Source: Antedon mediterranea | Lineage: Eukaryota > Animalia > Echinodermata | DNA: 64,000 bases | Direction: 5' to 3' | Assembly (NCBI RefSeq): GCF_964355755.1 | Contig: NC_092674.1 | Location: 14,260,001-14,324,000 of the forward strand | Part shown: in pieces, positions 16,437 through 59,609 of the stretch | Layout: every line of letters begins with the position of its first letter | Position numbering within the stretch: position 1 is the first letter of the stretch | Program-made: the position numbers and the translations under genes | Notes under the pieces: generated by a model | Told to the model about the DNA's origin: nothing | The model's input: the letters and a program-made list of their open reading frames with translations, nothing else | The model's database searches: none

Positions 16437-16583
16437 AGGATCGTATACTGAGCTGATTATAGAAAGAACGTTTCTTCTAGTTGGTTGTCGACTTGGTACA
16501 ACATTCTTAAATCCAAGAGTATCAGTGCCTACTGACCATCTAATTCCTAGAGCTCGTTCTATCGAAAGTTTCTCATAATCTAA

Positions 16584-26599: not shown

Positions 26600-28130
26600 A
26601 TGATTTATATTTTATAGAATTCTTGTTTCAAGCAATTTTTTTCCCAATATAAGTAAGAATTTACGAATTTTAATTTTATAGAATTCTTGTTTCAAGCAAT
26701 ACTTTTCTTAAAATAAGTAAACATTTACTGGTTTTTATTTGATAGACTTCTTGTTTACTTATTTTAAAAAAAGTTTTGCTTGAAACAAGAATTCTACAAA
26801 TAAAAATCGGAATATTCTTACTTATTTTAAGAAATATATTGCTTGAAACAAGAAAATTAAAAATATAAATCGGAATATTCTTACTTATTTTAAGAAAAAT
26901 ATTGCTTAAAACAAGAATTCTTAAAAATACAAACCGGAATATTCTTACTTATTTTAAGAAAAATATTGCTTGAAACAAGAATTCTACAAATAAAAATCGG
27001 AATATTCTTACTTATTTTAAGAAATATATTGCTTGAAACAAGAATTCAAAAAATACAAATCGGAATATTCTTACTTATTTTAAGAAAAATATTGCTTGAA
27101 ACAAGAATTCAAAAAATACAAATCGGAATATTCTTACTTATTTTAAGAAAAATATTGCTTGAAACAAGAATTCAAAAAATACAAATCGGAATATTCTTAC
27201 TTATTTTAAGAAAAATATTGCTTGAAACAAGAATTCAAAAAATACAAATCGGAATATTCTTACTTATTTTAAGAAATATATTGCTTGAAACAAGAATATT
27301 AAAATTAAAAATCGGAATATTCTTACTTATTTTAAGAAAAATATTGCTTAAAACAAGAATTCTAAAAAATACAAATCGGAATATTCTTACTTATTTTAAG
27401 AAAAATATTGCTTAAAACAAGAATTCTACAAATAAAAATCGGAATATTCTTACTTATTTTAAGAAATATTTTGCTTGAAACAAGAATTCAAAAAATACAA
27501 ATCGGAATATTCTTACTTATTTTAAGAAAAAAATTGCTTGAAACAAGAATTCAAAAAATACAAATCGGAATATTCTTACTTATTTTAAGAAAAATATTGC
27601 TTGAAACAAGAATTCAAAAAATACAAATCGGAATATTCTTACTTATTTTAAGAAAAATATTGCTTGAAACAAGAATTCAAAAAATAAAAATCGGAATATT
27701 CTTACTTATTTTGAGAAATATCTTGCTTGAAACAAGAATTCAAAAAAATACAAATCGGAATATTCTTACTTATTTTAAGAAATATATTGCTTGAAACAAG
27801 AATTCTATAAAATACAAATCGGAATATTCTTACTTATTTTAAGAAATATCTTGCTTGAAACAAGAATTCAAAAAAATACAAATCGGAATATTCTTACTTA
27901 TTTTAAGAAATATATTGCTTGAAACAAGAATTCTATAAAATACAAATCGGAATATTCTTACTTATTTTAAGAAATATATTGCTTGAAACAAGAATTCAAA
28001 CAAATACAAATCGGAATATTCTTACTTATTTTAAGAAAAATATTGCTTGAAACAAGAATTCTATTTTAAAAAATCGATAAATTGTTACTTATTTTAAGGC
28101 AGATACTGCTTAAAACAAGAATGAAAAAAG
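26600..28130. repeat. Right subterminal array (57-bp unit, more than 20 copies)
   Basis: ATCGGAATATTCTTACTTATTTTAAGAAAAATATTGCTTGAAACAAGAATTCAAAAAATACAA repeated; 19-aa-periodic spurious ORFs. Confidence 0.95.
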
Positions 28131-32192: not shown

Positions 32193-32594
32193 TGTAGTGA
32201 ATTTATCTTAGTTGGTTCCGAGCTTTCTCAGGCGTATATATTTCCACGCAACGTACACAGCTGTCACTGAATGATAACTCATACAAAAAGTATATTTAAC
32301 TCAACTAGAACTTTTAGTCCTTGTAATTCGATTAATACATCTTTCTACCACTACCAGTCAAGCCTTAATATTCTCTTTATCATCTTTCCGTTTAATTACT
32401 TTGATCTTATTCTCTCTTTTCTTAATATCTATTACATTCTACTTATTATACTGGATATGCAAATTTTAGGCTTCAGAGGAGGATAACATTTTCCCTCCAA
32501 AAATTATACAATTTTGATTGGCTAATAATAAGGCGGACCTGGTCTAAAGCATCCTTCTCTAAACACAGAGAATCACAACATCAATAATATGACA
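32193..32594 (-). repeat. Gypsy 3' LTR
   Basis: Matches 51573-51973 with about 5 differences by eye; polypurine tract AAAAAGGGGAA adjacent at 32595-32605. Confidence 0.95.
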
Positions 32595-32695
32595 TTCCCC
32601 TTTTTGGGAAAAAGATTGTGTCAATCTTTCCAAAAATTTAACATTTAAAACCATTTTACTTTAAACTATCTACTAATAACACCTCTATAATATTA

Positions 32696-33136
32696 TTATG
32701 CACGGCTTAATCCATCTGCATTTCCATTTAGTGATCCTTTCTTGTAAATAACTTTAAATTTATATCCTTGTAAAAACAGAGCCCATCTCATAAGTCTAAC
32801 ATTGGCACCCTTCATTAAGTCCATCCATCTCAATGCCTGGTGGTCAGTATGAACTTGAAATTCACAACCATACAGATAATACTTAAGTTTATTGATAGCC
32901 CAAACAATAGAGAGGCACTCTTTTTCTGGCACAGAATATCTCTGCTCATGTACAGATAACTTTCTACTTAAGTACACAATAGGATAATCATTACCCTCAC
33001 CATCTATTTGGCTCAGCACTGCACCTATGCCATAATTTGAGGCATCGGTTTGCAATATAAACATCTTATCAAAATGTGGGGCTTTTATACATTATCATCA
33101 GTAAGACGTTTCTTTAAAGTTACAAAGGCATTTTCT
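32696..33136 (-). pseudogene. Gypsy RNase H domain
   Basis: FILQTDASNYGIGAVLSQ...EKECL...TDH...NADGLSR; frameshift near 33085. Confidence 0.92.
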
Positions 33137-34291
33137 GGGCAATTCCATGCAAACATGGACATGACCAAAAAAATTCAAATTAATTAGTCAGCTCAAAATT
33201 TGTGTTTATGTTACTCTTTGAATATGTGGGAACTAGGTTTTTAACTTTTTCAATTCATTTATGACTTTTTGCAGCCAAAAAATTACGTTTATTCAATGTT
33301 GAATATATATTTTTTTTTAGGTGTGAAAAATAGGTAATTACGTTAACTGATTATTATTTTCCCAACAAAGCAATATTTATAAAGTAACATGTCTAAGTAA
33401 TAGTACACTTAAGATGTATGGAAAATATGATATAACTACAAATGTTGAATATCCCATATAGGAGTGCTGTGTATATTCTGTTATATATTAGGGTATGTAA
33501 TGCGAGTGACAAAAAAAATGATTTTTTTTTTTTATACCATCATGATGATAATTTTTTTTAATGAAATTTTATAATTTAGCTATACTACTTTGAACAATTA
33601 AAATTTGACAAATAAAAAATCCACGTAAATACAAAATTGTTGAGACATTGAAAAGTGAAATGCGAGTGACATGTAATGCGAGTGACGTTCAAAAATGGAC
33701 AATGTAATGCGAGTGACATTACCACAACTCTTTTTTTTGTAAAGTAAAATAGTAATTAATCTATCATTAGTTATGAATTAGTCCCAGAATTAGTATATAC
33801 ATTAATTTCATAATACAATGTGTAATTTGGCCCTTATTTGGAGGCACTACAGTATAATAATTATAGCATTAGGTTTGTTGAGGGCACAATCCCTAGCAAC
33901 GACCTTTTTGCAGTTAAATCATTTGAAAAATCAATCATTATAAGAGCTCATTAAATAAAAAACACTAAATCTGGTGAGATTTAACAAATTTGGTACAATT
34001 TTTTGTGAAGATAAGAAGGAAGGTAAGAATAAGTATACATTTATATTTAATCAAAATTTTTTTTCTTATATTGTTAGTGTTAATTATTTCAAATTCTATA
34101 ATTTGAAAACACCGCATAGGCCTAGGCTATAATAAGTAATTTATATATTATTATTTATATATTATTATTTACTAGGCATATTTTACATCACCAGGTCTAA
34201 AGCATTGTAGTTTTAAAAACAAAATATATAATTGCTTATTATTTAAAAATAATTTTAAAATATCATTCACATTTGCATCCTGCCTTTAGAA

Positions 34292-34570
34292 ATGGCCAAA
34301 CGACAGAGAAAGTACCTAGAAAAACTGAAAGCCGAGGGAAAATACACCTCATACAGAAACAAACAAAATAAAATTTCGAAAAGAAGTAAAAAAGTAAAAG
34401 AAAAGAGAAAATTCTAGCTCTGCCACCAGCTTTGAAGAAGCAGAAGATTGATGCTCTTAAAGTTGCTAATAGAAAACGTGTGGCTATTAGTTCAGAGCAA
34501 AGAAGGCTGCTTTGGCATCAGACGGACCATCACCTTTTAGAAGTGCTATGGCTTTGCTAAAGCCACTACC
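34292..34570 (+). pseudogene. Basic N-terminal remnant of the carrier element's transposase
   Basis: MAKRQRKYLEKLKAEGKYTSYRNKQ...NRKRV...SPFRS; frameshifted, no catalytic core; resemblance to Sola2 N-termini is from recollection only. Confidence 0.45.
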
Positions 34571-36212
34571 AGGGCAAAAAGAATGCTTGATGCTGGTTTG
34601 CGAAGAACTTTGAGTTCCATAATTTGTAAAATGGCTGTTTGAATTTTCTATTTTCATTTTTAGTGACCGTATAAGTGTTCTGTTACTGTGTTTGTAAAAA
34701 ATCAAGATATTCTGTTAGTGTTAAAAATAGATGATGTCCTCTAGAACTTCATCCAAATGAGTTGAAATAAAAGTTTTTACTTGAAAATTGATATAACATT
34801 CTTTGAGTGGTTTAATGTTGCATTATTTAATTATTGTCTACTTTTCTTTCTGCTTTGCTTAGTAAATACTAAGTTCACTTCTTACGGGAATGCGAGTGAC
34901 AGTAATGCGAGTGACGGGACTTTTTTGTTAAAATGTAAAATATTTTTAAAATCTATGTAATGTTGAATTTTTTTATTATCCTATTTTATACTTTAAAAGT
35001 ACAGTAATTAAAAATATAAGATCTTTTGATTTATATATTTTTAGTTTAAGGACACGTTCTTATCAAATCTAATCAAATTTTTGTTGTGTCCTTTTTGTGT
35101 AATGCGTGTGACAGAATTTCGCAATGGCGTCATTGTCGAAGTAAAAGACATACAATTTTTTTTATAGTATTTTATTAAAGACTTGCACCTAAAGTATGTT
35201 CATATAAAACATTGACTTAAAAATCCAATTAGTGTGTTCCTTCCCTTTACCAGCTAACCCGTCATATATAAAGCTCTAGCGGGTCGGCCAACCTCAATTT
35301 TCATTAGGCCTAAGTGACAACTCACCTTGGTATCAAAGTAAAGAGCCGCGATTTACGAGAGCCAGCTGTAATAAATCACAGCTTGTGGTCTGACAGTGCA
35401 AGATAAACAGATACAGTGTATATATAGCAAACGAAACAAAATAAATGTTTCCGTAAAGAAAAAAATAAAAGTATTCATACAGTTGTATTCATTATAAAAA
35501 AATATTGTTTTTACATGTTCGAATCGTGAAAATCGGTTAAGTTTAAGTGGAGCTAATGAACAAAGTTAAAATACACTTTCAATCATGTGAATGTTTACTA
35601 AAGGGCGTAGTGATAGTAATTCCTCGATGATGCACTAGGCCCGACATAAGACGCAATGCTGTTTTAGTATATCTATTTGTAACACTTTATCACGTTATTT
35701 TGCAGTAAATATGTTATATTATAATGTCAATATTATGATTATATTAATTATTGGTGAAAAACGATTTAATTTATTTTGATGTAATAAAATTACCGAACTA
35801 TTTTCTTGTGCGTAATTAGGTGACCGAGTCGCGCGGCTGCTAAGAAAAAAATACACTATTATTGTGGCCGCTGCACACGTGGTCGAGAGCATGTAGCTGG
35901 TTTACTTGATTGAATGGCGTATTAATTTTATATATAATAAAGATTTTTGATTATCTTAGAAGGAATAAAGTACAGCTTTTAAAAATAAATTATAATATTA
36001 TACGTATACCATAATTGTTAGTATGAATGAATGAGAAAAATATTTTTTATTGAGTAAAATTTAGGAACTTTTTTTCGCGTAATACAACGGTCGCATTACG
36101 TAATGTATGTTCGCCGCCCCTACCGTGGCAACTTTAATTAACTCAGCACTGTGCGAGGTCAGTTATTATTTTGTTGACGTTAGTACAATGTGTTGTTGGT
36201 AAGCTCCAAAAA

Positions 36213-39016
36213 ATGGCAGAAATTATGAGTGTTGGCAGCCGTGTACAATGTGTTGACAGTTTAGGACGATGGGAGTACGGGCGGGTGGTTGCTTTAGCCG
36301 ACGACGATGATGGACTAATTAAAGTTACATTTCCTGGCTGGTCGTCGGAGTGGGATCGTTCTGTCACTGTGCAAGAAATTCGACTGCCAGTGCAGCCGAT
36401 AGATAAACAATTTAAACGTAAGTGTATATTTATTAATTATTCTGAATTGTAGCATTAGATAGTCAATCCCCGGGCTACAGTTCATCATACTGTGCTAGGC
36501 CTAGGTGGATAAGTTTTTGACTTTAATCATTATTATAGAGAATGAAGTAGGTCTAGGCTAGGCCTATGTTAGTGTGACGATATGATTAAGACTTGAAAGA
36601 GTGAGTGCAGCGGCGCGTCGTAGGCCCACCACCGTGTCCGAGACTAGGCCTATTTATAGGACAATTCGGATAGACTGTTTTTTTTTAAATTAATATCTAG
36701 CTTTAAAGAAGGTAGCTTGGCCTACCCTACCTATATACATACACTATAATCATGCAGTACAGAAAAATCCCAGTACAAAAATTGAGGTAAATTAATCAAT
36801 ATCCTCGGGTGCCACACTAGTGACTAGCTTGATCCTAAAAATAGCCTGCCTATGAAGGGTAGGCTACTAGTAATTATGTCCTTTTTTTAAAAATGACTAC
36901 AGGAATTATGAAATATGTGAATAAGCTGTAGAAATAATTACGAGATTCTGCTGAAAGTGCATATCAGTCATTTATGGAAATTCATTATTAAGTTATACAC
37001 GGTATTAAATATATATGTTATACAGGTTCAGTTCCAGGTGGACATAGACGGTCTATTAAGAAACCTACACCTGAGCAATTAGCGACTTTTAAAAATCTGA
37101 CCTCAGAAGATGAGGTACTTGTAGGAGATGCATCTTTACAGGTCGTTGAGGTCGACAGGTTCAACCAATCTTTGGTTGTAATTAGGGACAACCACAGAGA
37201 AACAATTAATATCACTGAGTTACAGATAAAAGATAATGGAGGTATGTATTAAGTCCATTAACAATTGTGTATAATAATTAACAGCTGTTTCTTTTATTTT
37301 TTAATTAAAGAATCCTTTTTGTTTATTTTAATTAATCTTCTTACTTATCTATAATTTCTCATAAATCTGGTTGAATAGGCACTCTTTGAACTAATTACTC
37401 AATGCTAAAATTACAGGAAGTTGGTTTATATGTCTTAATTAATGTTAATAAACAATTATTTCTTTATGCTTACTCACATAATTTGGTTGGATAGGCACTC
37501 TTTTGATCTAATTACTTAATTCTGGTTCAATAATGATGATTAATGTTAAATATACAATTACTTTATGCTTTTGGTTGCATAGGCACTATTTTGTTTAGTA
37601 TCTTTAATCTAATATACAACTGTACAAACAATTCATTAATGTTAATTAAATTAGAAACACTTATATATTTTAAATTAGAAAAAGATATTAAATCATAGAA
37701 ATATTATAGTAAACTATAATGTCTCTATCATTAGATTGAGTTCTATCTATTGTATTATCTGAATAATGAATAATACTTTTTTTAGTGCAAGTTTTTTAAT
37801 TAAATCAAAGATAAAAATGCACTTTTATGATATCTGTATGATGGTGCTTTATTTTGTTTTCGATTTCAATAGGCAACCAAAATTCTAAAAGGGCAGCAAA
37901 AAAACGAAAGTCTTGCACTGTTTCTTGTGAACTTCAAACACATGCTGTACAGACAGACAGTTGGGTAAGTTTTTAAATTGTCATATAATTTAAATTATAG
38001 CTTTGTGATTGATTTACAGTACTTGTTTATTTTGTTCTAACATTAAGGCAGATAGTATTAGTAACATGGTTGTAACCAGCTCATTTGAATATACTAAAAT
38101 AAAACATCTTTTCTCTATTCCTTATTCTAGTTATCGACTGACAGCGACACCTTATTAGCTGTCACATCATGCATTGATGAGCTATATGGTATAGCAGTAG
38201 GAGAACTATATAAGGTAAAAATTGTTAGTGTTAGCATTTGTCTACTGTACTATGAAATTGTGTATTGTACTAAAGACTACATAATCAAACTTTATGTAAC
38301 AAAATGCCCATACAGTATGAATACGCTAATGTCATATTGTCAGTAATTTGGATTTATAATTTTTTGTTTTCTTTCAGATCAAGAAAAGCAACTTATTAGT
38401 TGCTGTAACAAACCTCGACTTATATAAACAATTAGCTCATTGTGTCATTTATATGGATGGTATTGATCTGGATTCTACTATCATCATTCCATACAATCGC
38501 TTAGATGTTTCTTGTGTGCCACTTTCCTGTGGATTGGACAAAAAAATGTTGGAGGAGTTCAGAAATAAGGCAAGTTCGCAAACTATAGAGAATCTCTCCA
38601 TATTAGAGTACAGAAAGCAGTTCCGAAGGGTGCAGTTGGCAAGTGCTATAAAATGTGAAGTAGGAGTGGTATTAAAGAGGAGACTGCGAGCTGTAAATCA
38701 CATGAACTTCGGACTTCTGACACCAGATGTTGATTGTGAAATGTTGCATTTCAACTTGCAAGAGGGTAAGAAAGCTAATAAATTCTCTTATAAAAATAAA
38801 AATCTTGATATGCTTGATCACATTTTGGGTAATGAATGGGACATCCATAGGTTTGAAAATGGAATCTCTTATGTAACAAGTTTGTCCATTCATATAAATA
38901 AGAAAAAGTACTTGGTAGGGTCGTTAGCAGTCGCTACATATAATGGACTTGTAGATGCAAATTATCGTCAACAACTAGGTGCTCACATGGTACATGTGAG
39001 GGATTGCTTGGACTAA
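36213..39016 (+). CDS. Five-exon gene, 411 aa, with N-terminal Tudor/chromo-barrel (Tudor-knot-like) domain; exons 36213-36417, 37026-37241, 37873-37964, 38131-38214, 38378-39016
   Basis: All introns GT-AG with compatible phases (1,1,0,0); 1236 nt open to the stop; VGSRVQCVDSLGRWEYGRV...IKVTFPGWSSEWDRSV fits the chromo-barrel pattern. Confidence 0.8.
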
Positions 39017-39591
39017 ATTGTCAATACTGTATGTAAAAACATTTTTAAAGATGCATTGTTTAAAAAAGCAAGACAACTGTGCTTTGTTGTTTTTCAAAAA
39101 TAATTTTGACTACTGTAGAGCATGCTTGCAATTCAAATTCCGTCCAATTTTCTTATTTGGCAATACATCTTTAATTGTTTCCGTATTGAAGAAAAGTCAT
39201 ATAAATAGTACTATTTAAGGATTTTACAAGTATTGTAGATTAATTGATTTGTCTTGTCTTACATGTTAAGTAATAAAAACAATTGTTGAGTTGCTTTTAT
39301 GAAAACTAAGGGGATAGTTTATCTAAAGGAAATTGGGGAAAATGTGATTTTTTTTGCTTGTTCAATCATGGAGGTATACTCCATGGTTCAATAAACACAT
39401 TAGAACATTACTAAAATCAGTCAACCCACAAGGGCAAATTTTTTAGTCACATTAACAGGTTTTAAATACTATTAAGTATTATTCAACTTCTTTTTTTGTA
39501 AGAGCAACACAATTATTGTTTTTTTTACATTGTACGCTGCCAACACTTATAATTTCTGCCTTTTGTTCTATGTAAATTGTATTGTACAAGT

Positions 39592-42500
39592 ATGAGTATC
39601 TCGGGACATTTTATTAATGGCCTATTGTGCAAGGTTCACCATCATGGTGCATCATGCAGTATAGATTGTTTATTGGAAGTTTTTTATTGGGGTATTTTTC
39701 CATTTACCAAAACTAAAATTTTCTCTCATCCCCTTCTCACAAGATTGTTTTATGTTTCAAATCTAAGAAAAATAATGCCTCTACAAACACCACCTTGTGA
39801 TATTCGGGAACCTGTTTGGAATTGGTTAGTTGAAAATTTACCAAATGGATTTTCCCCAAAAGGAACACATCATGCAGAAATACTGCAGGCCTTTGAATGT
39901 TTATCTGACACAAATATTGGCATGTCATTTGTTGCAAACTTCTTTGGAAATCAAAATCTACATTGCCAAAAGTGTCAGAGCTCATTAGATATTAACATTC
40001 TCACAAATTCAGTATATAATTACTCGCAATCGCTAAATGAAAAGTATCCACAAAACTTCAGTAAATGCATAGAGGAAGTCATAAGAAATACGATTTCACA
40101 TAAGTTAAAATGTAAATACAAGTGTAATTGTGGAGAAATGGCAAATACATTAAAAGGGCAATGTAGGATGCCTGAATTCCTTGTGGTAAACCTTGGGCTT
40201 GTGGGATGGCAAAATTGCCAAAAACCACCTATTGTTGTTCCCGAGAGAACAACCATACACTCATCCAGTTATGTTTTAACATCCGCTGTACAAATGGAAC
40301 CATCACACTTTATAGCAATTTGTAAAACTAATAGGGGTTATTCAGTCATTAATGATATGGTGCCATATACCAAGACATACCATACTTTTGCAGCAGCTGC
40401 TAACAGAAATCCCAAAATCCATTGCACATCAGTACCACTTGCAAGTTCAAAGGGCAAGGGAAAAATGGGGGGTATTCATTTGCTCATATACGCAAAAGTG
40501 GCGAGTGCTGAATGGCCGATGTTATCTTTCACTTGTCCAAAGCCAATAGAGGACCTAAATTCATCAGACCTTCCTACACAGGAATTGCCTACTGGTTCCA
40601 AGAATATGAGTACCAAAGAAAAGAATTCAGTAGATGACTTAAACAAAATGCCGATTGACTCTACTTGGCAAGTGCCACAGGAATTGCCTACTGGTTCCGA
40701 GAATATGAGTACCAAAGAAAAGAATTCAGTAGATGACCCTACTTGGCAATTGGCAAAAAAAAAAAAAAAACTTAATAAAAAGAAACATTCAGTAGATGAA
40801 TTAAACAAAATGCCGATTGACTCTACTTGGCAAGTGCCACAGGAATTGCCTACTGGTTCCGAGAATATGAGTACCAAAGAAAAGAATTCAGTAGATGACC
40901 CTACTTGGCAATTGGCAACAAAAAAAAGAAAACTTAATAAAAAGAAACATTCAGTAGATGAATTAACCAAAATGCCGATTGACTCTACTTGGCAAGTGCC
41001 ACAGGAATTGCCTACTGGTTCCGAGAATATGAGTACCAAAGAAAAGAATTCAGTAGATGACTTAAACAAAATGCCGATTGACTCTACTTGGCAAGTGCCA
41101 CAGGAATTGCCTACTGATTCCGAGAATGTAATTAGCAAAGAAAACCTATTATTAGATGGTTTGACTAAACCTGTACTTACTGATTTAACTAATTGTAACA
41201 ACAATGTTATTAAAAAAATAAATATCGGTGATGTTAACATTGAAGAAAAGGAAAATATTTCCCCTCATCCTAGGAAAAAACTCACTCAATGTAAAGTAAA
41301 AACAAACAATTTTGAACAATCTAAAAACTTTGTTGGAATTAAGATTGCAAAAAATAGTATTGTAGATATAGATATTGAAGCCATTGGTTCGACTGACATA
41401 CCACATACAATTTACAATGATAACATTTTCCTTAGCTGTCAGGAAATATTAAAATTATTAGGCCAGGAAAAAGAAATAAAAGCACGGGGATATGTCAAAT
41501 TCGACAAAATCCTTCAAGAAATGGGCCAAGACCCAAATCAAATGTTTCTTACATGTGGCAGCCGCAGACAGAGGCTCTGGGTAAAAAAAGAAGCTATAAT
41601 AAATATGTTAATGCACAAGTCATTTAGAAAACAAAAAACAGCTAATTTTGTTATGTTGCAATTGCAAGAGAAATTTAAAAATAAGAAATCTAAACTTGAG
41701 AAGACAAAATTTATTGAAAACAAGCCTCCACAAAAGACTCAAACTAGTTCATCCCCTACAATTAAGAAGGTAGATTTGAACTACAGAAAAGGAAATGTAA
41801 TTATTGATGGGCATCTTGTCAGTTACACAGTAAATGCAAATGGTGTGATTCACTTTAATACAAGTGAAATATTTTCAGCATTAGGTTTATTAAAACACAT
41901 TAAAAAGGAAGGGTACAAATATATTGATAAATATCTTAATGATCAAGGACTTGATTTTAAATCTTGCTTCATCATGAACGGTCCAAAGCGAACCTACATA
42001 ACGCTTCATGCGGTACACACTCTTATTTTATGTTTGCCAAACAGAATGATTGAAAGTGCAAAAAAGACAACTTTGTCCAATTCTGTTATTCTTGCACTGC
42101 AGCACATCACAGTAGAGAAATCTTCCGAAAACATACCATCTAAAAAAAAAGAGAAGTTCACGGTTGATGACAAAACAAATTTGTTAGAAAGTCTTAGTTC
42201 AATGTTAAGTGCAACAAAAGCAAATGACAATCAACGTTTAACAATAGATGATGTAGTGTCTGTATTGCATAAAGCAAGTATTAAATCACAAAAAGGAGCA
42301 AAAATTGTTAGAGGAATTGTAACCGATACATACAAATTATTAAACCCACTTAATGGTGAGGATGTAATTAATTGTCGCGAGAATTACAGTGGTTGTCGCC
42401 TTATGAACCGCATGAGAAAATTAATACCTGGGGTTCTTCCATCCAGAAAAACCGAAATGAAAGCTTCAGCCAAACTTAATGAAGAGTTTAGGGCAGTTTT

Positions 42501-44832
42501 GTGCCCACGCAGAACAGCATCTGGGTGGTATATTGACCCAGTCCGTTTGGTCGAAGTTTTGCTTTTTAAATATTCCTTTTTACAAGACAACATAAGTATG
42601 AAGATTCAAGGAGATGGTGCTCAAATGGGTGGGCGTAAAATTACTTATGTGGGGATTTCATTTCTCAATCACGAACTAAAGCTGCGTGGCCTCTCCTATC
42701 AAAATCCAAAAGAAATTTACCCAATTACACTTTTTTATGAAGGCGACGATCGTGATAACTTAGAAGAAAACCTAAAAATTCCCTTTTTGGAAAGATTAGT
42801 TCAGCATTTTAAATCAAATTTTACATTTTATTTAAGTGGGGATGAAATGTTCATCCAAGGTATACTGGATGGGTCATCTGTTTTAGGACCACTAACCGAG
42901 AAAGGTTGGAATATATACAATGAATGTAGCAAAGAGTCAAAAAAAAATGTATCAGAAAGTGGTATGCGAACAGACTTGTCCATGCCTATTGATCGTATCC
43001 ATCCAATTTCATTAATGCCTTCAATTCCACTTACCCATACACTTCCATGCATTCTTCACTGGGTTTCAAGGTGCACTGAAAAACTTTTATCATTGGAAGT
43101 TGAGAAAATATTTTCGCTTGGAAATAAATTAGCCGAAGTTGATGGCTCTTCAAATATTGAAGACCTAATAAAAAATTTAGAGACAAACATTAATTTACGA
43201 GGCATAAAAAACGGTAATTTCAGAATACCATTAGACAAAAATGGAAAACCAGAGCAGATTTCATTAAACAAAGATGCTGCAATCACGATAATTTGCCCAA
43301 CTCCCCTAGGAAAAGAAAAAGAATATCCACATGTTTTACATAATGTTGTCCCAACTTCAAAAATTAATAACAATCTACCTAAAAATGTAAGAGATTTTCT
43401 ACAACTAGACACTGATCTAACTGAACTTAGTTGTGTAAAGATGATATGGGAGAGTTTGTATATCATGTTTAGCATAGTACAGAAAGAACCAGAACACAAA
43501 ATTAAGTCAAGTTGTGTTGCAGGTTCTTTAAGACCGTCTGATTACAATTGGGGTTATTCCAATGATCAAAAAAATCAATATAAATTTCACGCAGAGAGGC
43601 TGTACCAACTGGTTTGCCTCAGATACAATTGGCACAACTTAACCCCATACATGATAAAATTTATTGATTATGGGGAACATTTTTTATCAAGGGACATTCC
43701 CTTATGTAGGTTTTCCACAGAAGGTGGTGAGCACAGCCACTATGATCGAAACTGCTTTTATTTCCACCACACAACTAGACATGGTGGGAAAAATAGTGTT
43801 GACCCAAACCTGGCCCAATTTAGTACTGTGTGGCGCAGGCTATCATATGACATCATTCATGGAGAAGATGAATCAGCTAAAAAAGCATTTGAGGTATATG
43901 TCAAAATGCATGTTGCTGCATCAAAAATACAGCGATGTTTTCGATTATTCTTGGTGAATAATTCTTTGTCTAAGTCTGGGTACATTCAAAACCCACAGAA
44001 TGAACATGAAAAAGCTAAAAACTTAATTTGTTTATCTAAGTTAGTACCACAAAATGTTATAGATTCAACAACTAAGAAATTATTCCGTGGGAAATCGTTT
44101 ATTTTAACTGGAAGTGTCCCAAAGTTCCAGGGGAAAAAAATGACTCAACAAACAATAACTGAAATGATAAAAGCAAATGGTGGTAAAATTAAAAAAAGCT
44201 TACCAGGAAATTCAAAAAGATCCACGAAAAAATACATAATCTTAACAAATCTTGCAACTTGCAAAAAAAGTACCTTTAAAGTGCCAAATGTCATAAAAGA
44301 TGGCGTGAGACGGCGCAGTCATGTTGTTGACTACAGTTATATATTTTCATCTATAGAATCCAACAGTCTACCTCCTTTTAGTATGCATGAACCAGAATGC
44401 CTTATGCAAATAAAGCAAAAAGTTTCGTTGTTGCCAACACTTAATCAGATACACTTTAAAAAAAAATTTCGAATGATATCTATCCTAAAAGGTCCGCGAA
44501 AAACTAAGGCAGTTATCCGAGAGCCAACACTTAAATGTGCAAAAAATGTTGCAGTTTTTTATGCCAATATAAAAAGAAAAGAATACATCAAAAGCAATGT
44601 TGGTGTAACTTTTAAAGAAAGTAGTCAATTATTTTCAAAGTATACCAAAGAATACAATGCTTTAAAACACAATGAAAAAACACATTATACAAGAATGTGG
44701 CTAAATAGCCGATATTCTAAGGCTAACCAGGCTAAAAGGTTAGCTGACCTGAAATCTTACAATTATATAAAAAAACCACAATATTTAGAAGCTACAAAAT
44801 GTAGTCTTGCTCAATCAGTTGCTCAGAATTAA
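39592..44832 (+). CDS. ~1750-aa multidomain RAG1/Transib-like DDE transposase/recombinase (USP-like protease, repeats, 2x Bro-N-like, DDE core, IQ, BRCT, HMG box)
   Basis: Uninterrupted 5.2-kb ORF (first ATG 39592); motifs IQGDG, LSGDEMF, PCILHWVSR, LTPY, FSTEGGEHS; SCSIDCLL/SHFIA/INDM; FRGKSFILTG..NGG; AATAAA at ~44907. Confidence 0.75.
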   Translation: MSISGHFINGLLCKVHHHGASCSIDCLLEVFYWGIFPFTKTKIFSHPLLTRLFYVSNLRKIMPLQTPPCDIREPVWNWLVENLPNGFSPKGTHHAEILQAFECLSDTNIGMSFVANFFGNQNLHCQKCQSSLDINILTNSVYNYSQSLNEKYPQNFSKCIEEVIRNTISHKLKCKYKCNCGEMANTLKGQCRMPEFLVVNLGLVGWQNCQKPPIVVPERTTIHSSSYVLTSAVQMEPSHFIAICKTNRGYSVINDMVPYTKTYHTFAAAANRNPKIHCTSVPLASSKGKGKMGGIHLLIYAKVASAEWPMLSFTCPKPIEDLNSSDLPTQELPTGSKNMSTKEKNSVDDLNKMPIDSTWQVPQELPTGSENMSTKEKNSVDDPTWQLAKKKKKLNKKKHSVDELNKMPIDSTWQVPQELPTGSENMSTKEKNSVDDPTWQLATKKRKLNKKKHSVDELTKMPIDSTWQVPQELPTGSENMSTKEKNSVDDLNKMPIDSTWQVPQELPTDSENVISKENLLLDGLTKPVLTDLTNCNNNVIKKINIGDVNIEEKENISPHPRKKLTQCKVKTNNFEQSKNFVGIKIAKNSIVDIDIEAIGSTDIPHTIYNDNIFLSCQEILKLLGQEKEIKARGYVKFDKILQEMGQDPNQMFLTCGSRRQRLWVKKEAIINMLMHKSFRKQKTANFVMLQLQEKFKNKKSKLEKTKFIENKPPQKTQTSSSPTIKKVDLNYRKGNVIIDGHLVSYTVNANGVIHFNTSEIFSALGLLKHIKKEGYKYIDKYLNDQGLDFKSCFIMNGPKRTYITLHAVHTLILCLPNRMIESAKKTTLSNSVILALQHITVEKSSENIPSKKKEKFTVDDKTNLLESLSSMLSATKANDNQRLTIDDVVSVLHKASIKSQKGAKIVRGIVTDTYKLLNPLNGEDVINCRENYSGCRLMNRMRKLIPGVLPSRKTEMKASAKLNEEFRAVLCPRRTASGWYIDPVRLVEVLLFKYSFLQDNISMKIQGDGAQMGGRKITYVGISFLNHELKLRGLSYQNPKEIYPITLFYEGDDRDNLEENLKIPFLERLVQHFKSNFTFYLSGDEMFIQGILDGSSVLGPLTEKGWNIYNECSKESKKNVSESGMRTDLSMPIDRIHPISLMPSIPLTHTLPCILHWVSRCTEKLLSLEVEKIFSLGNKLAEVDGSSNIEDLIKNLETNINLRGIKNGNFRIPLDKNGKPEQISLNKDAAITIICPTPLGKEKEYPHVLHNVVPTSKINNNLPKNVRDFLQLDTDLTELSCVKMIWESLYIMFSIVQKEPEHKIKSSCVAGSLRPSDYNWGYSNDQKNQYKFHAERLYQLVCLRYNWHNLTPYMIKFIDYGEHFLSRDIPLCRFSTEGGEHSHYDRNCFYFHHTTRHGGKNSVDPNLAQFSTVWRRLSYDIIHGEDESAKKAFEVYVKMHVAASKIQRCFRLFLVNNSLSKSGYIQNPQNEHEKAKNLICLSKLVPQNVIDSTTKKLFRGKSFILTGSVPKFQGKKMTQQTITEMIKANGGKIKKSLPGNSKRSTKKYIILTNLATCKKSTFKVPNVIKDGVRRRSHVVDYSYIFSSIESNSLPPFSMHEPECLMQIKQKVSLLPTLNQIHFKKKFRMISILKGPRKTKAVIREPTLKCAKNVAVFYANIKRKEYIKSNVGVTFKESSQLFSKYTKEYNALKHNEKTHYTRMWLNSRYSKANQAKRLADLKSYNYIKKPQYLEATKCSLAQSVAQN
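40570..41130 (+). repeat. In-frame coding tandem repeat (units 99, 162, 162, 99 bp)
   Basis: CCTACTG(G/A)TTCC anchor at 40588, 40687, 40849, 41011, 41110; QELPTGSENMSTKEKNSVDD. Confidence 0.92.
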
Positions 44833-45503
44833 ATTATGAATACAGTGCTAAAGCTTGTATTTGTGTTGTGTATCCTTTAATACAGTAGACTGGTACAGGT
44901 AATTTCAATAAAACATTTTTCTTGTCATTTTCTCAAATCACTAAGTCCATTCACTAAACAATTCATACTGTATGTTTCAAGTAAATATTGCCTATGCTAG
45001 TGCAAATCGATTAATAATGTACAGTACAGTAGGTATCATTTTTGGCAGAATAATAATGTGTGGAAGATGTTAGATCACTTTACAATATTTATGGCAATAT
45101 AAATCATTTATGATAATAAAAATCATTTATGGTAATAAATAAACATGTTTTTATAGTTTATGGCGTTTTAATATTATTTTTCTATTTTAACATAAGTAAC
45201 TAAAATTTAACAAAAAGTGGTTTTGAATTATACAAAACAACTTCTTTTTTTCAAAACTGTTTATCAAACTAAGATTATATTTGTCATATAGGTATTATAT
45301 AATACTGTAGTATAAAGGCCAATTTACAAAGATGAACGGTAACGGTTATAAAAATATAGAATGTATGTTATACCTTATGACCATTTACACACCATGCAAA
45401 GTGGACAGAGGTTTCCTTTCAGGATGTGTACAGATTCTATGTGATTTTCTGCTTATCATTACTCATCTCTGTAAATTGGCTTTAATTGTAAAGTATATTA
45501 GTA

Positions 45504-46460
45504 TTTCCATTTACTTTTATGTGTAAAATTAATTCAATAAATCCTATTCTTGTAATAGTATAGAGAATTTACAAATGAATTGGCTTTAATTGTAAAGTAG
45601 TATCTATATAATAATTGTAGTAGTAGTAATCTATATATAAGCGTGCCATCTAGTAAGTACAATTGTTGTAGTATGTGATAGTGATCGTAGGTAATAATAA
45701 TAGGTAGTAGTATAGTACAGTGGTACAATTTTTAAATTATGTTCTTTTAAAAATTATTTTACATTCCAATAACAATATTCACAGCTTTACAATGCAATTT
45801 AAAGTATTTATATATAACTCGGGAAAGTTTCCATTTACTTTTATGTGTAAAATTAATTCAATAAATCCTATTCTTGTAATAGTATAGAGAATTTACAAAT
45901 GAATTGGCTTTAATTGAATTGTAGTAGTAATAATAAGTACAATTGTTGTAGTATGTGATAGTGATCGTAGGTAATAATAATAGGTAGTAGTATAGTACAG
46001 TGGTACAATTTTTACATTATGTTCTTTTAAAAATTATTTTACATTCCAATAACAATATTCACAGCTTTACAATGCAATTTAAAGTATTTATATATAACCC
46101 GGGAAAGTTTCCATTTACTTTTATGTGTAAAATTAATTCAATAAATCCTATTCTTGTAATAGTATAGAGAATTTACAAATGAATTGGCTTTAATTGAATT
46201 GTAGTAGTAATAATAAGTACAATTGTTGTAGTATGTGATAGTGATCGTAGGTAATAATAATAGGTAGTAGTATAGTACAGTGGTACAATTTTTACATTAT
46301 GTTCTTTTAAAAATTATTTTATATTCCAATAACAATATTCACAGCTTTACAATGCAATTTAAAGTATATTTATATATAGCCAGGAAAAGTTTCCATTTAG
46401 TTTTTATATGTAAAATTAATTCAATAAATCCTATTCTTGTAATAGTATAGAGAATTTACA
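45504..46460. repeat. Tandem repeat, ~280-325-bp unit, ~3.3 copies
   Basis: TTTCCATTTACTTTTATGTGTAAAATTAATTCAATAAATCC at ~45504, ~45828, ~46108, ~46390. Confidence 0.9.
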
Positions 46461-46504
46461 GTTTGTCTTAAGCACTATTATTTTTAGTTTGTGAAAATAG
46501 ACAG

Positions 46505-46795
46505 TTTCAATTGGGTAGCACACTGTTTCAAAATGGATAGCACAATGTTTCAATTGGGTAGCACACTGTTTCAAAATGGATAGCACAATGTTTCAATTGG
46601 GTAGCACACTGTTTCAAAATGGATAGCACACTGTTTCAAAATGGATAGCACAATGTTTCAATTGGGTAGCACACTGTTTCAAAATGGATAGCACAATGTT
46701 TCAATTGGGTAGCACACTGTTTCAAAATGGATAGCACAATGTTTCAATTGGATAGCACACTGTTTCAAAATAGATAGCACAATGTTTTAATTGGA
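46505..46795. repeat. Minisatellite of alternating 22/21-bp units
   Basis: GCACACTGTTTCAAAATGGATA and GCACAATGTTTCAATTGGGTA, about 13 units. Confidence 0.92.
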
Positions 46796-47396
46796 AGTTA
46801 AAAAACCTATAAATGACAATAAAATATTCACTATTTTATTCACTTTTTCAAGACAATATTTTACCTCCGCCAAGGAGGTATATGTAGCCACATAAGTTAT
46901 TTACTTTGACCAAAAATTGGATTAAAAAAAATAATTTATAGCAAAAAAAAAATCAAATTGGTCGAAAGTCAATGGTTTTTTATAGAATTTACATTTTTAT
47001 TAAAGAGAAAACATTTTTTTAACTGCAAAATTGCTTATTTAAAAAATAAATAAAATATTAATTGCTCATGTTTTTGGGTGACAATACTGTACATCTTTAT
47101 AATTAAGCACATAATAATACTATTACAGTAGAAAAAAAAACACCAGAGAATTTAGAATGTAGTTCCAGTTTACTTGGCAGAGAGCACTAGCTGACCTTGC
47201 TTGAGCAATAAAACTTCCTAATCTAAACAAGCTATAATGGTAATCCAATTAAAATGCAATTACCAGTCCTAGACCTTAATCCCTAAAATGATGGTCAGAA
47301 ATCAGCAAAATTGGTAAAGGGAAGGAACACCTCATGCAAATCCTAGACTAACAAAAATGACTGTAATGTGTAATGCGAGTGACCATGGAATTGCCC

Positions 47397-48059
47397 TTCA
47401 CATTGTTCATTCCACTTAAAGGTATTACTTTTACTCTTTAAAGTTAAATCAATCAATGGCTTAGCAATATCGGCATAGTTCTGTACAAATTTTCTGTAAT
47501 AGCCAGTTAATCCGAGAAATGATCGGACTTGTTTCTTAGACAAAGGTCTGGGGAACTTTTCCACAGCCTCAACCTTATCAATCATGGGTCTAATTTCTCC
47601 ATTACCAATCTTATGCCCCAGAAATTCTACCTGTGCATAGGCAATTTTACATTTCAAAGGCTTTGCTGTCAATCCAGCACTACTTAATCTTTCTAATACA
47701 TCATTCAAATGAAAAATATGATCTTTCCAAGTTTGACTATAAATACATATGTCATCTATATATGCCTTAGCATATCCCTCAGTACCTTGTAATACCTTAT
47801 CCATTAATCTTTGGAAAGTACTAGAGCTATTTTGCATACCAAATGGAAGTACATTGTAACAATACTGTCCAAATTGTGTAATAAATGCTGATTTGTCTTT
47901 GGTCTTAGGATCCAGAGGCACCTGGTAAAATCCTTTAGTTAGATCTAACGTAGTTATGTATATTGCGGATGATACCTCATCCAACATTTCGTCTATGCGA
48001 GGCATAACATAAGGGTCAAATTGTGTAGTCTTATTTAGTGATCTAAAATCTGTCACCAT
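47397..48059 (-). pseudogene. Gypsy reverse transcriptase (N-terminus deleted)
   Basis: DFRSLN, LDLTKGFYQV, LPFGMQN, AYIDD, FLGLTGYYRKF. Confidence 0.95.
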
Positions 48060-48062
48060 TCT

Positions 48063-49399
48063 TTACTATTTCCTACTGGAAGGAATATCAACACTTTGTC
48101 CCCTTCTACAAATTCTCTATCAATAGCATTCTTGTTATAATTGTGGGACATAATTTCTTGTTGTTCAAGTTTGTTTACATTAGCATCGTTCATTAATTCC
48201 TCCATTTTTTCTCTTATTTCTAACATGTATTTGATAACATCAGTAGATGTTTCTTCATCTTCTACCCAATTACTTTTGAGTAAACTCAAGGGTCCTCTCA
48301 CCTCTCTACCATAAAGCAATTTAAAAGGTGAATGGCCCGTCGCTTTACTAGGAACTTCTCTGTATGCAAACAGAAAGGGGGGTATGTAGTTATCCCAATT
48401 TTTTCTTTGCTTAACTGTAAGTGTCCTTATCATATTTTTCAATGTACCGTGAAATCTTTCAACAAGCCCATTGCTTTGGGGGTGGTACACTGTAGTCTTT
48501 AATTGATTAATCCCCAACATACTACATATAGATTGCATAATTGAAGACATGAAATTAGTTCCTTGATCATGTACAATCTCTTCGGGTAATCCTACTCTAG
48601 TAAAGACTTCTATTAGAGCCCTGGCTACTGTTTCAGCTCTAACATTGGGTAACGGGATAGCATCCGGATATCTCGTAGCATAGTCAATTATAGTAAGCAT
48701 ATATTTGTTATTACGGCTTGTTCTAGATAAGGGTCCAACAATATCTATCGCTATACGTTTAAATGGTGTACTTATAATCGGTAATGGTATCAAAGTATGT
48801 TTCCTTTTACTTTTACCCTTATCTACCTTTTGGCATTCCTTACAGACTTTACAATAGACTACCACATCTTTAAATATACCTGGCCAATAGAATTGGTTCA
48901 GGACCCTACTTTTAGTTTTCTCAACACCCATGTGACCTGCAAATGGCACATTATGACCTAAGTGTAATACACCCTGTCTACACTGAGTGGGTAATACAAT
49001 CTGTTCCACTTGGTTATTCTTATCTTTAATACTACTCCAATTTCTCATCAATATACCTTGTCTCATAAAGAAACATACCCTATGCTGACCTATTTCTTCT
49101 ATAGGGACTATCCTGTCAAACACTCCTTTGAGTGAGTCATCCTTAGTTTGCAATTTGATCAGTTCTTGTTTAGTTAGCTTGTGCTGTTGTTCATAAGTTT
49201 TATGTTTGACTGTTTTATCTTTAGCTTTATCCTCATTTTCGTCAAACAAATTATTCATTTCTGTTCCATTCATATCATCTAAACACTTAGTTTTATTTAC
49301 TTTGTTGTCATTTACTACTGTTTTCAACAATTGTACATTAGTTTCTTTAGGCGGCTCTTCTATCAGCTTAAAGTTACTATCTTTCCCTAACAATATCAT
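48063..49399 (-). pseudogene. Gypsy integrase (C-terminus deleted in this copy)
   Basis: H-x6-H...CxxC, DIVGPL, HDQGTNF, NGLVERFH; diverges from the second copy after VGNSK. Confidence 0.95.
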
Positions 49400-49960
49400 T
49401 TCGTCTTGTATTCTAACATCATTTCTATTCTGGCTTGCTCCCTAGTTAGGACGAACATTTCTTTAGCCATTGTTTCCCCACAATTCTGGTCCAAATCATG
49501 ACCCAATAACATGTCCCTCTGTAATCCTTCGATTACGGCTACAATCACTTTTCCTGTCACTATCTTACTTTCTATAGCTACCTCAGCTAAGGGGACGGTA
49601 ATATCGCCTCCTATACCTCTTAACGTAACCCATTTTCCTGGCAAGTAACATTTGTTAGGCACTAGACTTTCCTTAACAGCTGACTGGGTACATCCCGAGT
49701 CTCTAAGCATAGTTATATCCTGTCCTTCTAATTTTCCTGGTATTGTACATTTCTCCATTTTATTTTCTACACTATCTATAACTACTTGGGGTCTATCTGA
49801 TTTTAGTCCTTCACATCTTAAGCCATCTTTCACATTCGGGCCCTTCTTAGTGTCACTAGTCTTTCCTTTTGCTACCATCTTAGGACAATCCCCTATTTTA
49901 TGTCCCTTCTCCTTACAATTAAAGCATAAGCCATTAATCCATTCATTAGAAGGTTCTTTC
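49396..49960 (-). pseudogene. Gypsy zinc knuckle and aspartic protease
   Basis: CFNCKEKGHKIGDC upstream in frame; LRDSGC and MLLGHD protease motifs. Confidence 0.9.
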
Positions 49961-51026
49961 TGTTGGAAATTTCTACCATAGTTATGGAATTTGCCTCCCC
50001 TTCCGTGATACCTACAGTATTGTATCCTTGCTGCCTAGCTCCAGGGTTATTCTGAGTCGTACTATTCTTAGGTTTACTATTTTCTTGGCCCTTATAATAC
50101 ATAGGCTTATTTTCAGAATTTACGGCATTCCAATAGCCACGGCCACCTCTATTAGCTATATAATCATCGGCTATCATAGCCATATCATAGCTCTTATTTA
50201 CTTGTTTATCTCTAAGATAAAGCCTCAGATCTTCAGGCATTTTATCAAGTGCCTGTTCCATTATAATCATTTCAATAATGCCTGCAGCATCATCTTCTTT
50301 TACATTAGCACATTTCATCCAACATTTTAAATAATGGGAGAGCTCATTCAGCCATTCCCTGATGGACATATCTTTAACTCTGTTTGAATTTCTAAATTTA
50401 AATCTGTAGGTCTCTGCGGACACATCATACTTTTCTAAGATTGCCTTCTTTAAGGTATCATAATCTACACATTCTTTTACGGTTAAGGATGCATATGCTG
50501 TCCTAGCTTTACCAGACAGTTCAGGTGCTAACCTAGCGGACCACGTATTCTTATCCCAACCTGTGGCTTCTGCCAAGTGTTCAAATGTTCTAAAATATAT
50601 ATCAATATCATCTGATTCCTTCAAAGTAGGAACCTTTACCTTCATTTCATCTACTATATTCCTAGCATTACTGTAGCTAGACCTATTTTCTAATTCCATC
50701 ATTTTCACTCTTTCTTGTGATTCAATTTTTCTTTGCTCTATATCTATTTTCTGTGGCTCTATATCTGCTTCTAATCTTAATTGGTCTTGTTGGTATTGTA
50801 ATTCTAACCTTTTGTTTTCGGCCTCGGCCTCGAACTTCATTCGAAAATATTCGAGCATCATATCTTTAGGCATACCGCCGGGTATTTCGGGCAAATCAAT
50901 ATCCCTAGCCATGTTATCATACATTTCATTGACTTGGTCAACCTCTTCTTGGTCAACCATCTCTTCCCTAGTATCTTTTTCTGACATAGTCTTATCTATA
51001 TTTTTACCCGATCTTAAAGTTGTCAT
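49893..51026 (-). CDS. gag: Gypsy gag with SCAN-like capsid region (frameshifted before the zinc knuckle)
   Basis: MTTLRSG start; YFRTFE..W..W, LKKAILEKY..ETYRFKFR, IIMEQAL..MPEDLRLYL. Confidence 0.9.
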   Translation of the reverse strand: MTTLRSGKNIDKTMSEKDTREEMVDQEEVDQVNEMYDNMARDIDLPEIPGGMPKDMMLEYFRMKFEAEAENKRLELQYQQDQLRLEADIEPQKIDIEQRKIESQERVKMMELENRSSYSNARNIVDEMKVKVPTLKESDDIDIYFRTFEHLAEATGWDKNTWSARLAPELSGKARTAYASLTVKECVDYDTLKKAILEKYDVSAETYRFKFRNSNRVKDMSIREWLNELSHYLKCWMKCANVKEDDAAGIIEMIIMEQALDKMPEDLRLYLRDKQVNKSYDMAMIADDYIANRGGRGYWNAVNSENKPMYYKGQENSKPKNSTTQNNPGARQQGYNTVGITEGEANSITMVEISNRKNLLMNGLMAYALIVRRRDIK

Positions 51027-51558
51027 GCTAATAACAATTTTACTAATGAAATATGTAAACTTATGTATACAAAATATGTTATAAAAGTATTTGTATTACC
51101 TTGATTCCATTCAGATATGTAAAAAATATGAAATCCACATAAATTTTTAAATGCAATACAATCTAAGACATTAATTTACTTCAAAGTCACAAACAACGTT
51201 CCAAGTTCGCTCCGTACAAAAATTTGCTTTCGAAATAAAAAATAGTTTACAAAGTCAGCTTTGCAAATCTTCTCAAAATTTTCTGGGCTTCCTTCTGTTA
51301 CTTCAGTCTTCTTCTTTCAGATCTCGGTGAATATATACAGTATCTCCGATGAATATCCAGCAGTCTTGAGTAGGTACCTTGAGCTCAACAGTACTTCTTC
51401 TTCGTTGTAATATCCAAACAACGCACGGTATAAAAACTGTCAGGAATCCAGATCTTCGTAACCATTTAACTTTTTGGTTACTGATTTAACAGGCCCGTAG
51501 AGTAGGCACTGTCACTTCTTCTTCTTCTTGATACTTAAATCATGTATACAAAAATTTT

Positions 51559-51572
51559 CACCGCTGCCACCA
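51559..51572 (-). promoter_or_regulatory. Primer-binding site complementary to the tRNA-Leu 3' end
   Basis: TGGTGGCAGCGGTG immediately after the 5' LTR; mirrored at 57916-57929. Confidence 0.85.
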
Positions 51573-51973
51573 TGTAGTGAATTTATCTTAGTTGGTTCCG
51601 AGCTTTCTCAGGCGTATATATTTCCACGCGACGTACACAGCTGTCACTGAATGATAACTCATACAAAAAGTATATTTAACTCAACTAGAACTTTTATTCC
51701 TTGTAATTCGATTAATACATCTTTCTACCACTACCAGTCAAGCCTTAATATTCTCTTTATCATCTTTCCGTTTATCTACTTTGATCTTATTCTCTCTTTT
51801 CTTAATATCTATTACATTCTACTTTTATACTGGATATGCAAATTTTAGGCTTCAGAGGAGGATAACATTTTCCCTCCAAAAATTATACAATTTTGATTGG
51901 CTAATAATAAGGCGGACCTGGTCTAAAGCATCCTTCTCTAAACACAGAGAATCACAACATCAATAATATGACA
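51573..51973 (-). repeat. Gypsy 5' LTR
   Basis: TG...CA, 401 bp, primer-binding site on the inner side, TSD CTCAT on the outer side. Confidence 0.95.
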
Positions 51974-57900: not shown

Positions 57901-58461
57901 GATAAATTCACTACATGGTGGCAGCGGTGAAAATTTTTGTATACATGATTTAAGTATCAAGAAGAAGAAGAAGTGACAGTGCCTACTCTACGGGCCTGTT
58001 AAATCAGTAACCAAAAAGTTAAATGGTTACGAAGATCTGGATTCCTGACAGTTTTTATACCGTGCGTTGTTTGGATATTACAACGAAGAAGAAGTACTGT
58101 TGAGCTCAAGGTACCTACTCAAGACTGCTGGATATTCATCGGAGATACTGTATATATTCACCGAGATCTGAAAGAAGAAGACTGAAGTAACAGAAGGAAG
58201 CCCAGAAAATTTTGAGAAGATTTGCAAAGCTGACTTTGTAAACTATTTTTTATTTCGAAAGCAAATTTTTGTACGGAGCGAACTTGGAACGTTGTTTGTG
58301 ACTTTGAAGTAAATTAATGTCTTAGATTGTATTGCATTTAAAAATTTATGTGGATTTCATATTTTTTACATATCTGAATGGAATCAAGGTAATACAAATA
58401 CTTTTATAACATATTTTGTATACATAAGTTTACATATTTCATTAGTAAAATTGTTATTAGC

Positions 58462-59595: not shown

Positions 59596-59609
59596 GGGAT
59601 TGTCCTAAG

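Follow-up and report, generated by a model that had tools for sequence, protein, structure and literature searches.

It is an open question how RAG1, the cutter of antibody genes, came to depend on a partner that reads chromatin; a single solution, RAG2, is known. A stretch of the echinoderm Antedon mediterranea (contig NC_092674.1 of assembly GCF_964355755.1, positions 14,260,001 to 14,324,000; 64,000 nucleotides, all of which is called the window here) raises the question of whether a RAG1-like enzyme has been teamed with a different reader. The window holds an insertion with inverted ends and two open genes; the larger gene carries a conserved D-D-E triad, and homologues of the two genes are linked in other animals. 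The enzyme has a predicted RAG1-like fold. On balance we lean towards one reading of the whole: a mobile two-gene DNA transposon, in which a RAG1-fold enzyme is helped by a chromatin-binding partner. Its parts differ in strength: that this is a mobile RAG1-fold transposon is nearly certain; functional coupling of partner and enzyme is very likely; binding of methyl-lysine by the partner, judged from its residues, is fairly probable; the idea that such binding guides or licenses transposition, beyond countering silencing, is tentative and somewhat doubtful.

The insertion, its ends and its relatives

Positions 35234-35252 and 47312-47330 form a perfect 19-bp inverted repeat pair; by chance, 64 kb of that composition should yield 0.06 such pairs. 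An initial annotation of the window, made from the letters alone, drew the element from 35234 to 47330. These limits shift: the right end reaches 47336, and the left end is without its first 6 nt. This can be seen in contigs from four sequencing runs mapped to window positions 34600-39500 (two of the runs, X1 and X3, are one sample). Contigs break exactly at 35233/35234, and in three of the four runs an empty host site is found, in which the last 13 of the letters following 35233 equal window positions 47344-47356. Other flanks precede the left end in runs X3 and X8, where it starts CATG; one X1 contig begins 6 nt upstream of 35234. At the right, the window copy reads through to ATG at 47336 and the host resumes at about 47337, as against the loose end of the empty site. 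From this we infer that the true ends are 5'-CAT..ATG-3' and that the left junction of the window copy is missing 6 nt of the element together with roughly 10 nt of host sequence. Because that junction is deleted, no target-site duplication can be read here; a 6-bp direct repeat lying 7 nt beyond each perfect arm was considered as one, and is ruled out by the empty site, which shows the deletion. C is the first base of the right flank in all three cases seen.

Two further observations concern copies of the element. Summed contig depth in X1 is 237-297 over 35234-35912 as against 27 over the genes, which, depth not being copy number, is a hint of non-autonomous copies. Run X5, from organism B, holds an internally deleted relative, with joints 35879-36268 and 36633-38991 (window 35234-39000). 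The internal genes are uncovered by contigs in X5 and X8, a gap that carries no weight.

Between the ends lie two same-strand genes with open frames, as first annotated: gene 1, of five exons and 411 aa, and gene 2, of 1746 aa in a single frame (39553-44832, with its ATG at 39592). The four introns of gene 1 are all GT..AG, its 1236 coding nucleotides hold zero internal stops, and it ends on a stop and poly(A) signals of its own. Frames of the surrounding transposable elements had been described as broken, and the neighbours checked bear this out: a BEL/Pao retrotransposon frame (14118-19526) is broken by a single stop at 16584-16586, and a Gypsy pol is interrupted and frameshifted.

The linkage of the two genes outlives the individual copy. 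Co-occurrence elsewhere was a check named in advance. Searched with the gene 1 protein of the window and nothing else, 5 of 21 loci show a homologue next to the transposase (L001, L004, L009, L013 and L015; E-values 1.5e-14 to 1.2e-6); in the profile version of this check, L001, L009 and L013 were themselves in the profiles. Since L013 and L015 represent a single element, the five loci amount to four lineages, with cores 23-53% identical. In addition, the first 340 residues of a Holothuria model, P0029, are partner (E 2e-15) and the remainder is enzyme; as a true fusion protein this was set aside, the model being probably an annotation join, since gene 1 of the window ends on its own signals. 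Intron 1 has the same position and phase in L001 as in the window. The partner lies upstream on the same strand in the window, L001, L004 and P0029, downstream on the same strand in L009, and convergent to the enzyme in L013/L015, where the L013 partner is intronless beside a spliced enzyme. With three layouts among relatives, head-to-tail order, once put forward as a defining trait, is not a fixed one. RAGL elements likewise occur in both the convergent layout (ProtoRAG, as in L013) and the head-to-tail one (AanRAGL, as in the window), a head-to-tail RAG2L-RAG1L pair being already published (PMC9435367).

L013 holds both genes within inverted ends of 26 bp that open with CATTAC, at 791 and 10069; it is the only copy with both ends intact, and no target-site duplication stands alongside (n=1). 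It matches L015 at 99.9% over 7698 nt, diverging one base beyond the right end, where the flanks differ. CAT ends are found in the window copies, L001 and L013. In line with mobility, six of ten proteins examined belong to clusters (90% identity) whose 6-10 members lie on several large contigs. L001 is a circularly permuted unit, its right end fused to its left end with one base lost (6369-6409), a junction that resembles a signal joint; the contig closes within a coding tandem repeat, and is compatible with a circle or a tandem array. Separately, contigs L007 and L017 match L013 exons without introns, like spliced transcripts or processed copies.

Is the partner, then, a host gene that was captured by a Transib-like element of one gene and now rides along as passive cargo? 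The freedom of layout would fit, as would the abundance of partner relatives: a 5-row profile search gives 243 clusters at E<=0.001, and annotated Holothuria copies lie away from annotated transposases. What makes cargo very improbable is the persistence of the linkage through inversion, relocation and intron loss in lineages as divergent as those above, together with an open frame kept across five exons and the way partner divergence tracks enzyme divergence (over six pairs, enzyme and partner identities correlate with a Spearman coefficient of 0.83, reached by 9 of 720 permutations). The relatives are, moreover, hypothetical proteins present in several copies, and none is named as a conserved host orthologue; of 20 that were looked up, the named ones come from Holothuria, Apostichopus, Anneissia and Branchiostoma and are annotated as hypothetical.

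The enzyme and its predicted fold

A search with the catalytic core found 31 homologous proteins among 3611 candidates, at 29-61% identity; the named ones are four from Holothuria leucospilota and one from Apostichopus japonicus. No relatives were found in viral contigs or prokaryotic genomes, the viral scan having been run without a partner alignment. Residues 854-1746 were modelled from a 37-row alignment with a mean predicted local distance difference test score (pLDDT) of 83; a single-sequence model (pLDDT 33) was set aside. A fold match of the core was the second check named in advance: Foldseek places RAG1 chains at the top (E 2.5e-10), followed by Transib, BbRAG1L and P transposase. Comparison by VIA gives Z 19.7 against RAG1 (root-mean-square deviation 4.0, 406 residues aligned), 18.0 against HzTransib (PDB 6PQX; 4.7, 397 aligned), 17.8 against BbRAG1L and 12.6 against P transposase. 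The ranking is of Foldseek's own candidates; hAT, CACTA-type and other lower-ranked folds lie outside the comparison. Identity in the fold match is 10-13%, and the link to RAG1 appeared in none of the sequence searches: it is a likeness of predicted fold. The catalytic residues themselves are almost invariant (D1008 in 36 of 37 rows, D1084 in 37/37, E1377 in 35/37).

In the first account the enzyme was RAG1/Transib-related. The fold upholds this; the zinc motifs, which that account passed over, are missing: in windows set by RAG1 spacing rather than by a published structural alignment, a CxxC following the second Asp and an Hx3-4H preceding the Glu each occur in 0 of 35 rows. A CxxH at C300/H303 of the folded piece is kept in 33/37 and 36/37 rows, and CxxH is shared by the C/DxxH group (PMC10045372, in excerpt). 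Histidines after the catalytic Glu (window 43729-43785; 35/35, 33/35 and 29/35 rows) are, to judge by their conservation, a possible alternative metal site.

The missing zinc motifs bear on whether the element belongs to a family already held in Repbase or Dfam, such as Lanisha or an unclassified family of the CMCT clade (EnSpm/CACTA, Mirage, Chapaev, Transib, Plavaka, ESTA as well as Lanisha; Kojima 2025, PMC12730594, in excerpt). Its enzyme is RAG1-like and its termini, 5'-CA..TG-3', fit that clade, and the description of Lanisha is confined to Repbase Reports. According to the same excerpt, however, all CMCT lineages and RAG1 have the C(2)C and H(3-4)H motifs in common, and all named lineages, Lanisha included, have 2-5 bp duplications; here both motifs are absent from all 35 rows, no duplication is seen in L013, the one copy that can be read, and the database names of the homologues are 'hypothetical' or single-domain labels. 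A known family is, by these characters and names, improbable, if less so than a cargo gene.

Outside the core, gene 2 carries domains that the initial annotation overlooked: a USP-type protease, a BRCT domain, an IQ-like motif and an HMG box. For residues 1-303 the first ESM Atlas match is the PF00443 UCH cluster (score 0.95, 185 shared features), and the hallmarks of USP enzymes (peptidase C19) are present: Cys box, His box, Asp/Asn and finger cysteines. Among rows that have a residue at the position, C22 is kept in 17/17, H239 in 22/22 and Asp at 254 in 19/20. Profile searches with the protease are weak (E 0.65 and 0.95); Peptidase_C98 matches one of ten members at E=1.6e-4, and none passes the Pfam cut-off. 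For the HMG box, relative P0031 has a Pfam HMG_box_2 match above cut-off (E=6e-5), and L009 appears, by eye, to code the box in separate exons. A module of about 100 aa, present twice (the copies cross-match at E=7e-19), gave no PDB match below E 0.15; by resemblance only, it may be Bro-N-like. TALE-repeat matches in the gene 2 profile search were taken as chance.

The Tudor-domain partner

The Tudor-type barrel first noticed in gene 1, with its cage largely kept, is borne out by sequence matches, of which PHF20L1 Tudor1 and the L3MBTL MBT repeats are the best for exon 1. Exon 1 alone matches PHF20L1 Tudor1 at E=0.007, and the family profile reaches L3MBTL3 and PHF20L1 at E 1e-6 to 5e-6 (PHF20L1 Tudor1 at E=4e-6). 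Methyl-lysine contacts in PHF20L1 are D23, Y24, Y29, F47, W50 and Y54; small-ligand binding was not weakened in Y24A or Y24L (bioRxiv 2020.04.29.069500, in excerpt). Gene 1 has D, S, E, F, W and W at these positions, that is, four of the six ligand contacts (D-F-W-aromatic) are retained. Across 24 partner rows the equivalents of F47, W50 and Y54 are aromatic in 22, 23 and 21; the W50 equivalent is W in 22/24, and that of Y54 is F, W or Y in 21/24. On these residues, the retained cage favours a mono- or dimethyl-lysine pocket, and leaves the ligand unspecified.

The barrel makes up about 60 of the 411 residues. In the exon 5 product, R83, D119, D147, W154, D155 and R197 are conserved at at least 90%; this C-terminal domain has no identification in Pfam, the PDB or the ESM Atlas (best Atlas score 0.78). 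A word-based search with exon 5 among 360 candidates gave no match, unlike the profile search. Neither kelch nor PHD matches were found in the gene 1 exons or in 106 family members. It differs from PHF20L1 and L3MBTL in being a transposon protein, with an unrelated C-terminus.

A different role for such a partner is that of an anti-silencing or end-binding regulator, acting on the element's own DNA or chromatin, with no choice of target and perhaps no contact with the enzyme; analogues are TnpA of CACTA/En-Spm and the Myb/SANT protein of Harbinger. It is indeed the C-terminal domain, and not the Tudor barrel, that holds most of the conserved partner residues (R, R, E, G, D, LD..LG..WD, YR); subterminal arrays are present in the element; the USP-type isopeptidase of the enzyme would fit a counter-silencing toolkit; and Tudor modules of the PHF20L1 type can bind DNA (PMC13285377, in excerpt). 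Yet the cage aromatics show strong conservation between lineages that are about 20% identical, and searches of Pfam, the PDB and the ESM Atlas found no DNA-binding fold in the partner. We consider a purely regulatory partner unlikely, though a serious candidate; the two roles can also both hold.

Several points weigh against a RAG1-fold enzyme helped by a chromatin-binding partner. On the enzyme side, RAG1 and Transib differ by less than 2 Z units in their match to the core, so that closer kinship to RAG1 is unsupported. With regard to linkage, no partner match is seen in 16 of the 21 loci, which are short or without the relevant flank, none having both ends defined; L011 lacks the partner within flanks of about 1.7 kb to the left and right; the Holothuria partner tags HOLleu_33913, 03333, 21476, 14763 and 20891 adjoin none of the transposase tags 42605, 22741, 03851 and 03423 (both lists being partial); and the correlation of identities may in part reflect host relatedness. 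With regard to the pocket, two of the five cage aromatics of PHF20L1, Y24 and Y29, are replaced by S16 and E21, and the D23 equivalent is D in just 12 of 22 rows. In PHF20L1 itself, the tandem Tudors are DNA binders whose selectivity for methylation is lost on nucleosomes (PMC13285377), and Tudor1 reads non-histone DNMT1 too (bioRxiv 2020.04.29.069500; both in excerpt).

If the favoured reading is right, the division of labour might be as follows. The large protein would likely cut and paste the element, its D-D-E core cutting at the CAT..ATG ends by analogy with RAG1 and Transib. RAG uses host HMGB1; here a fused HMG box may, by the same analogy, bend the end DNA in its stead. The BRCT domain would contact break-repair proteins, and the USP-type domain would strip ubiquitin or SUMO, protecting the complex or loosening silencing. 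The partner would dock on chromatin through its Tudor barrel, likely on a mono- or dimethylated lysine, while its unnamed C-terminal domain may contact the enzyme or the ends.

Setting, and place among known transposons

Coordinates are collected in the table. The element sits in a non-coding host element with 12-bp GGG..CCC inverted ends, which we take to be Sola2-like. This has an imperfect 4-bp flanking repeat and high summed depth in X1 and X3, and is nested in turn in a Gypsy element (32193-51976), which it splits between the reverse transcriptase and RNase H regions. The Gypsy long terminal repeats (32193-32597 and 51573-51976) are 98.5% identical; the element runs along the minus strand, its gag has a SCAN domain and its integrase precedes reverse transcriptase, and it is presumably Gmr1-like. 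Elsewhere in the window, a near-perfect 13-kb palindrome (48063-61425; arms <=4361 nt, 100% complementary) is an inverted duplication or an assembly artefact, and AT-rich tandem arrays at 20531-21940 and 26604-28129 are related, with 102-bp and 63-bp units and inverted segments.

Table. Features of the two-gene element and its host element (window positions)
Feature	Position	Strand	Remarks
Transposon insertion with inverted ends	35234-47336		about 12 kb; two genes inside
Left terminal inverted repeat	35234..35252	+	19-bp perfect core; outer 6 nt of other copies missing here
Right terminal inverted repeat	47312..47336	-	ends ..ATG at 47336
Gene 1 exon 1	36213..36417	+	Tudor/MBT-type barrel; D15, W20, F40, W43, W47
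Gene 1 exon 2	37026..37241	+	second conserved beta-rich module, V..D.F motif
Gene 1 exon 3	37873..37964	+	basic linker
Gene 1 exon 4	38131..38214	+	
Gene 1 exon 5	38378..39016	+	unnamed conserved C-terminal domain
Gene 2, transposase	39592..44832	+	1746 aa, single open frame
USP-type cysteine protease domain	39592..40500	+	C22, H239, N254/D255, zinc-ribbon cysteines
In-frame tandem repeats	40577..41160	+	162/99 bp; code low-complexity linker
Conserved ~100-aa module, two copies	41356..42132	+	
Catalytic core, predicted RAG1/Transib fold	42388..43875	+	D1008 (42613), D1084 (42841), E1377 (43720)
IQ-like motif	43909..43950	+	weak: Pfam IQ E 0.013-0.016 in two relatives; sodium-channel IQ E 0.28
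BRCT domain	44077..44379	+	Pfam BRCT_2 E=8e-9, above cut-off; VIA Z 9.9
HMG-box-like domain	44539..44760	+	three helices in model; profile match Nhp6A E=4e-4 and many HMG boxes
Subterminal tandem arrays	45654..46795		280 bp x2.9; 43 bp x6.8
Host element of the insertion	33137..47396		non-coding; nested in Gypsy element

Where does such an element belong? With RAG1-RAG2 and with RAGL/ProtoRAG it shares, on the basis of fold, a D-D-E core, and with RAGL/ProtoRAG the plan of two genes between inverted ends, the second having a domain of the methyl-lysine-reader type. It differs from RAGL in most particulars: the partner is Tudor plus an unnamed domain in place of kelch plus PHD; the ends start CAT, whereas those of RAGL start CAC; the 5-bp duplication of RAGL is not seen in L013 (n=1; RAGL ends and duplication from PMC7204232, in excerpt); and the ZnC2/ZnH2 zinc motifs are absent. 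RAG1 begins with an N-terminal RING zinc finger; the enzyme here begins with a USP-type protease, and has BRCT and HMG box fused to it. Transib is nearly as close in fold, and has short inverted ends; it has, however, a single gene, zinc motifs, and CAC ends with 5-bp duplications (PMC7204232, in excerpt), as against two genes in the window and L013 and an enzyme about three times longer, with many domains.

More distant systems share single features. CACTA elements carry a second protein as well. P elements, whose superfamily is marked by a THAP domain and a 7-8 bp duplication, are some way behind RAG1 in fold, and no THAP domain was found here. Zisupton and Ginger elements have fused Ulp1/OTU proteases, and so resemble the present enzyme in joining a ubiquitin/SUMO-type protease to a transposase; the USP protease family and the transposase lineage differ.

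By these characters the element falls outside RAGL (RAG2-like gene, CAC ends, zinc motifs), outside Transib, and, on zinc motifs, outside CMCT. No description of the present family was found in the literature searched, with Repbase, Dfam and the supplements of PMC9435367 and PMC12730594 lying outside the search; the element represents an intact two-gene lineage of RAG1-fold transposons that is probably undescribed. A bolder proposal, which we regard as unlikely in its entirety, would make it a superfamily-level branch with the accessory kit rebuilt: a Tudor reader for RAG2, a built-in HMG box for HMGB1, a deubiquitinase for the RAG1 ligase, and a BRCT domain, with the zinc site dropped, no target-site duplication, and its ends joined in the manner of V(D)J signal joints (L001).

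For the classification of transposons and for integration tools, it would matter that a RAG1 fold can do without zinc, that the HMG box is supplied by the enzyme itself and that insertion possibly leaves no duplication. As an intact copy with defined ends, the element is directly testable. A second lineage, joining a RAG1-fold enzyme to an unrelated reader, is the natural comparison for RAG: does the fold have a recurring need for such a partner, and does that partner serve targeting or escape from silencing? If the reading is true, the element would show that a team like RAG1-RAG2 exists in a second version of independent origin.

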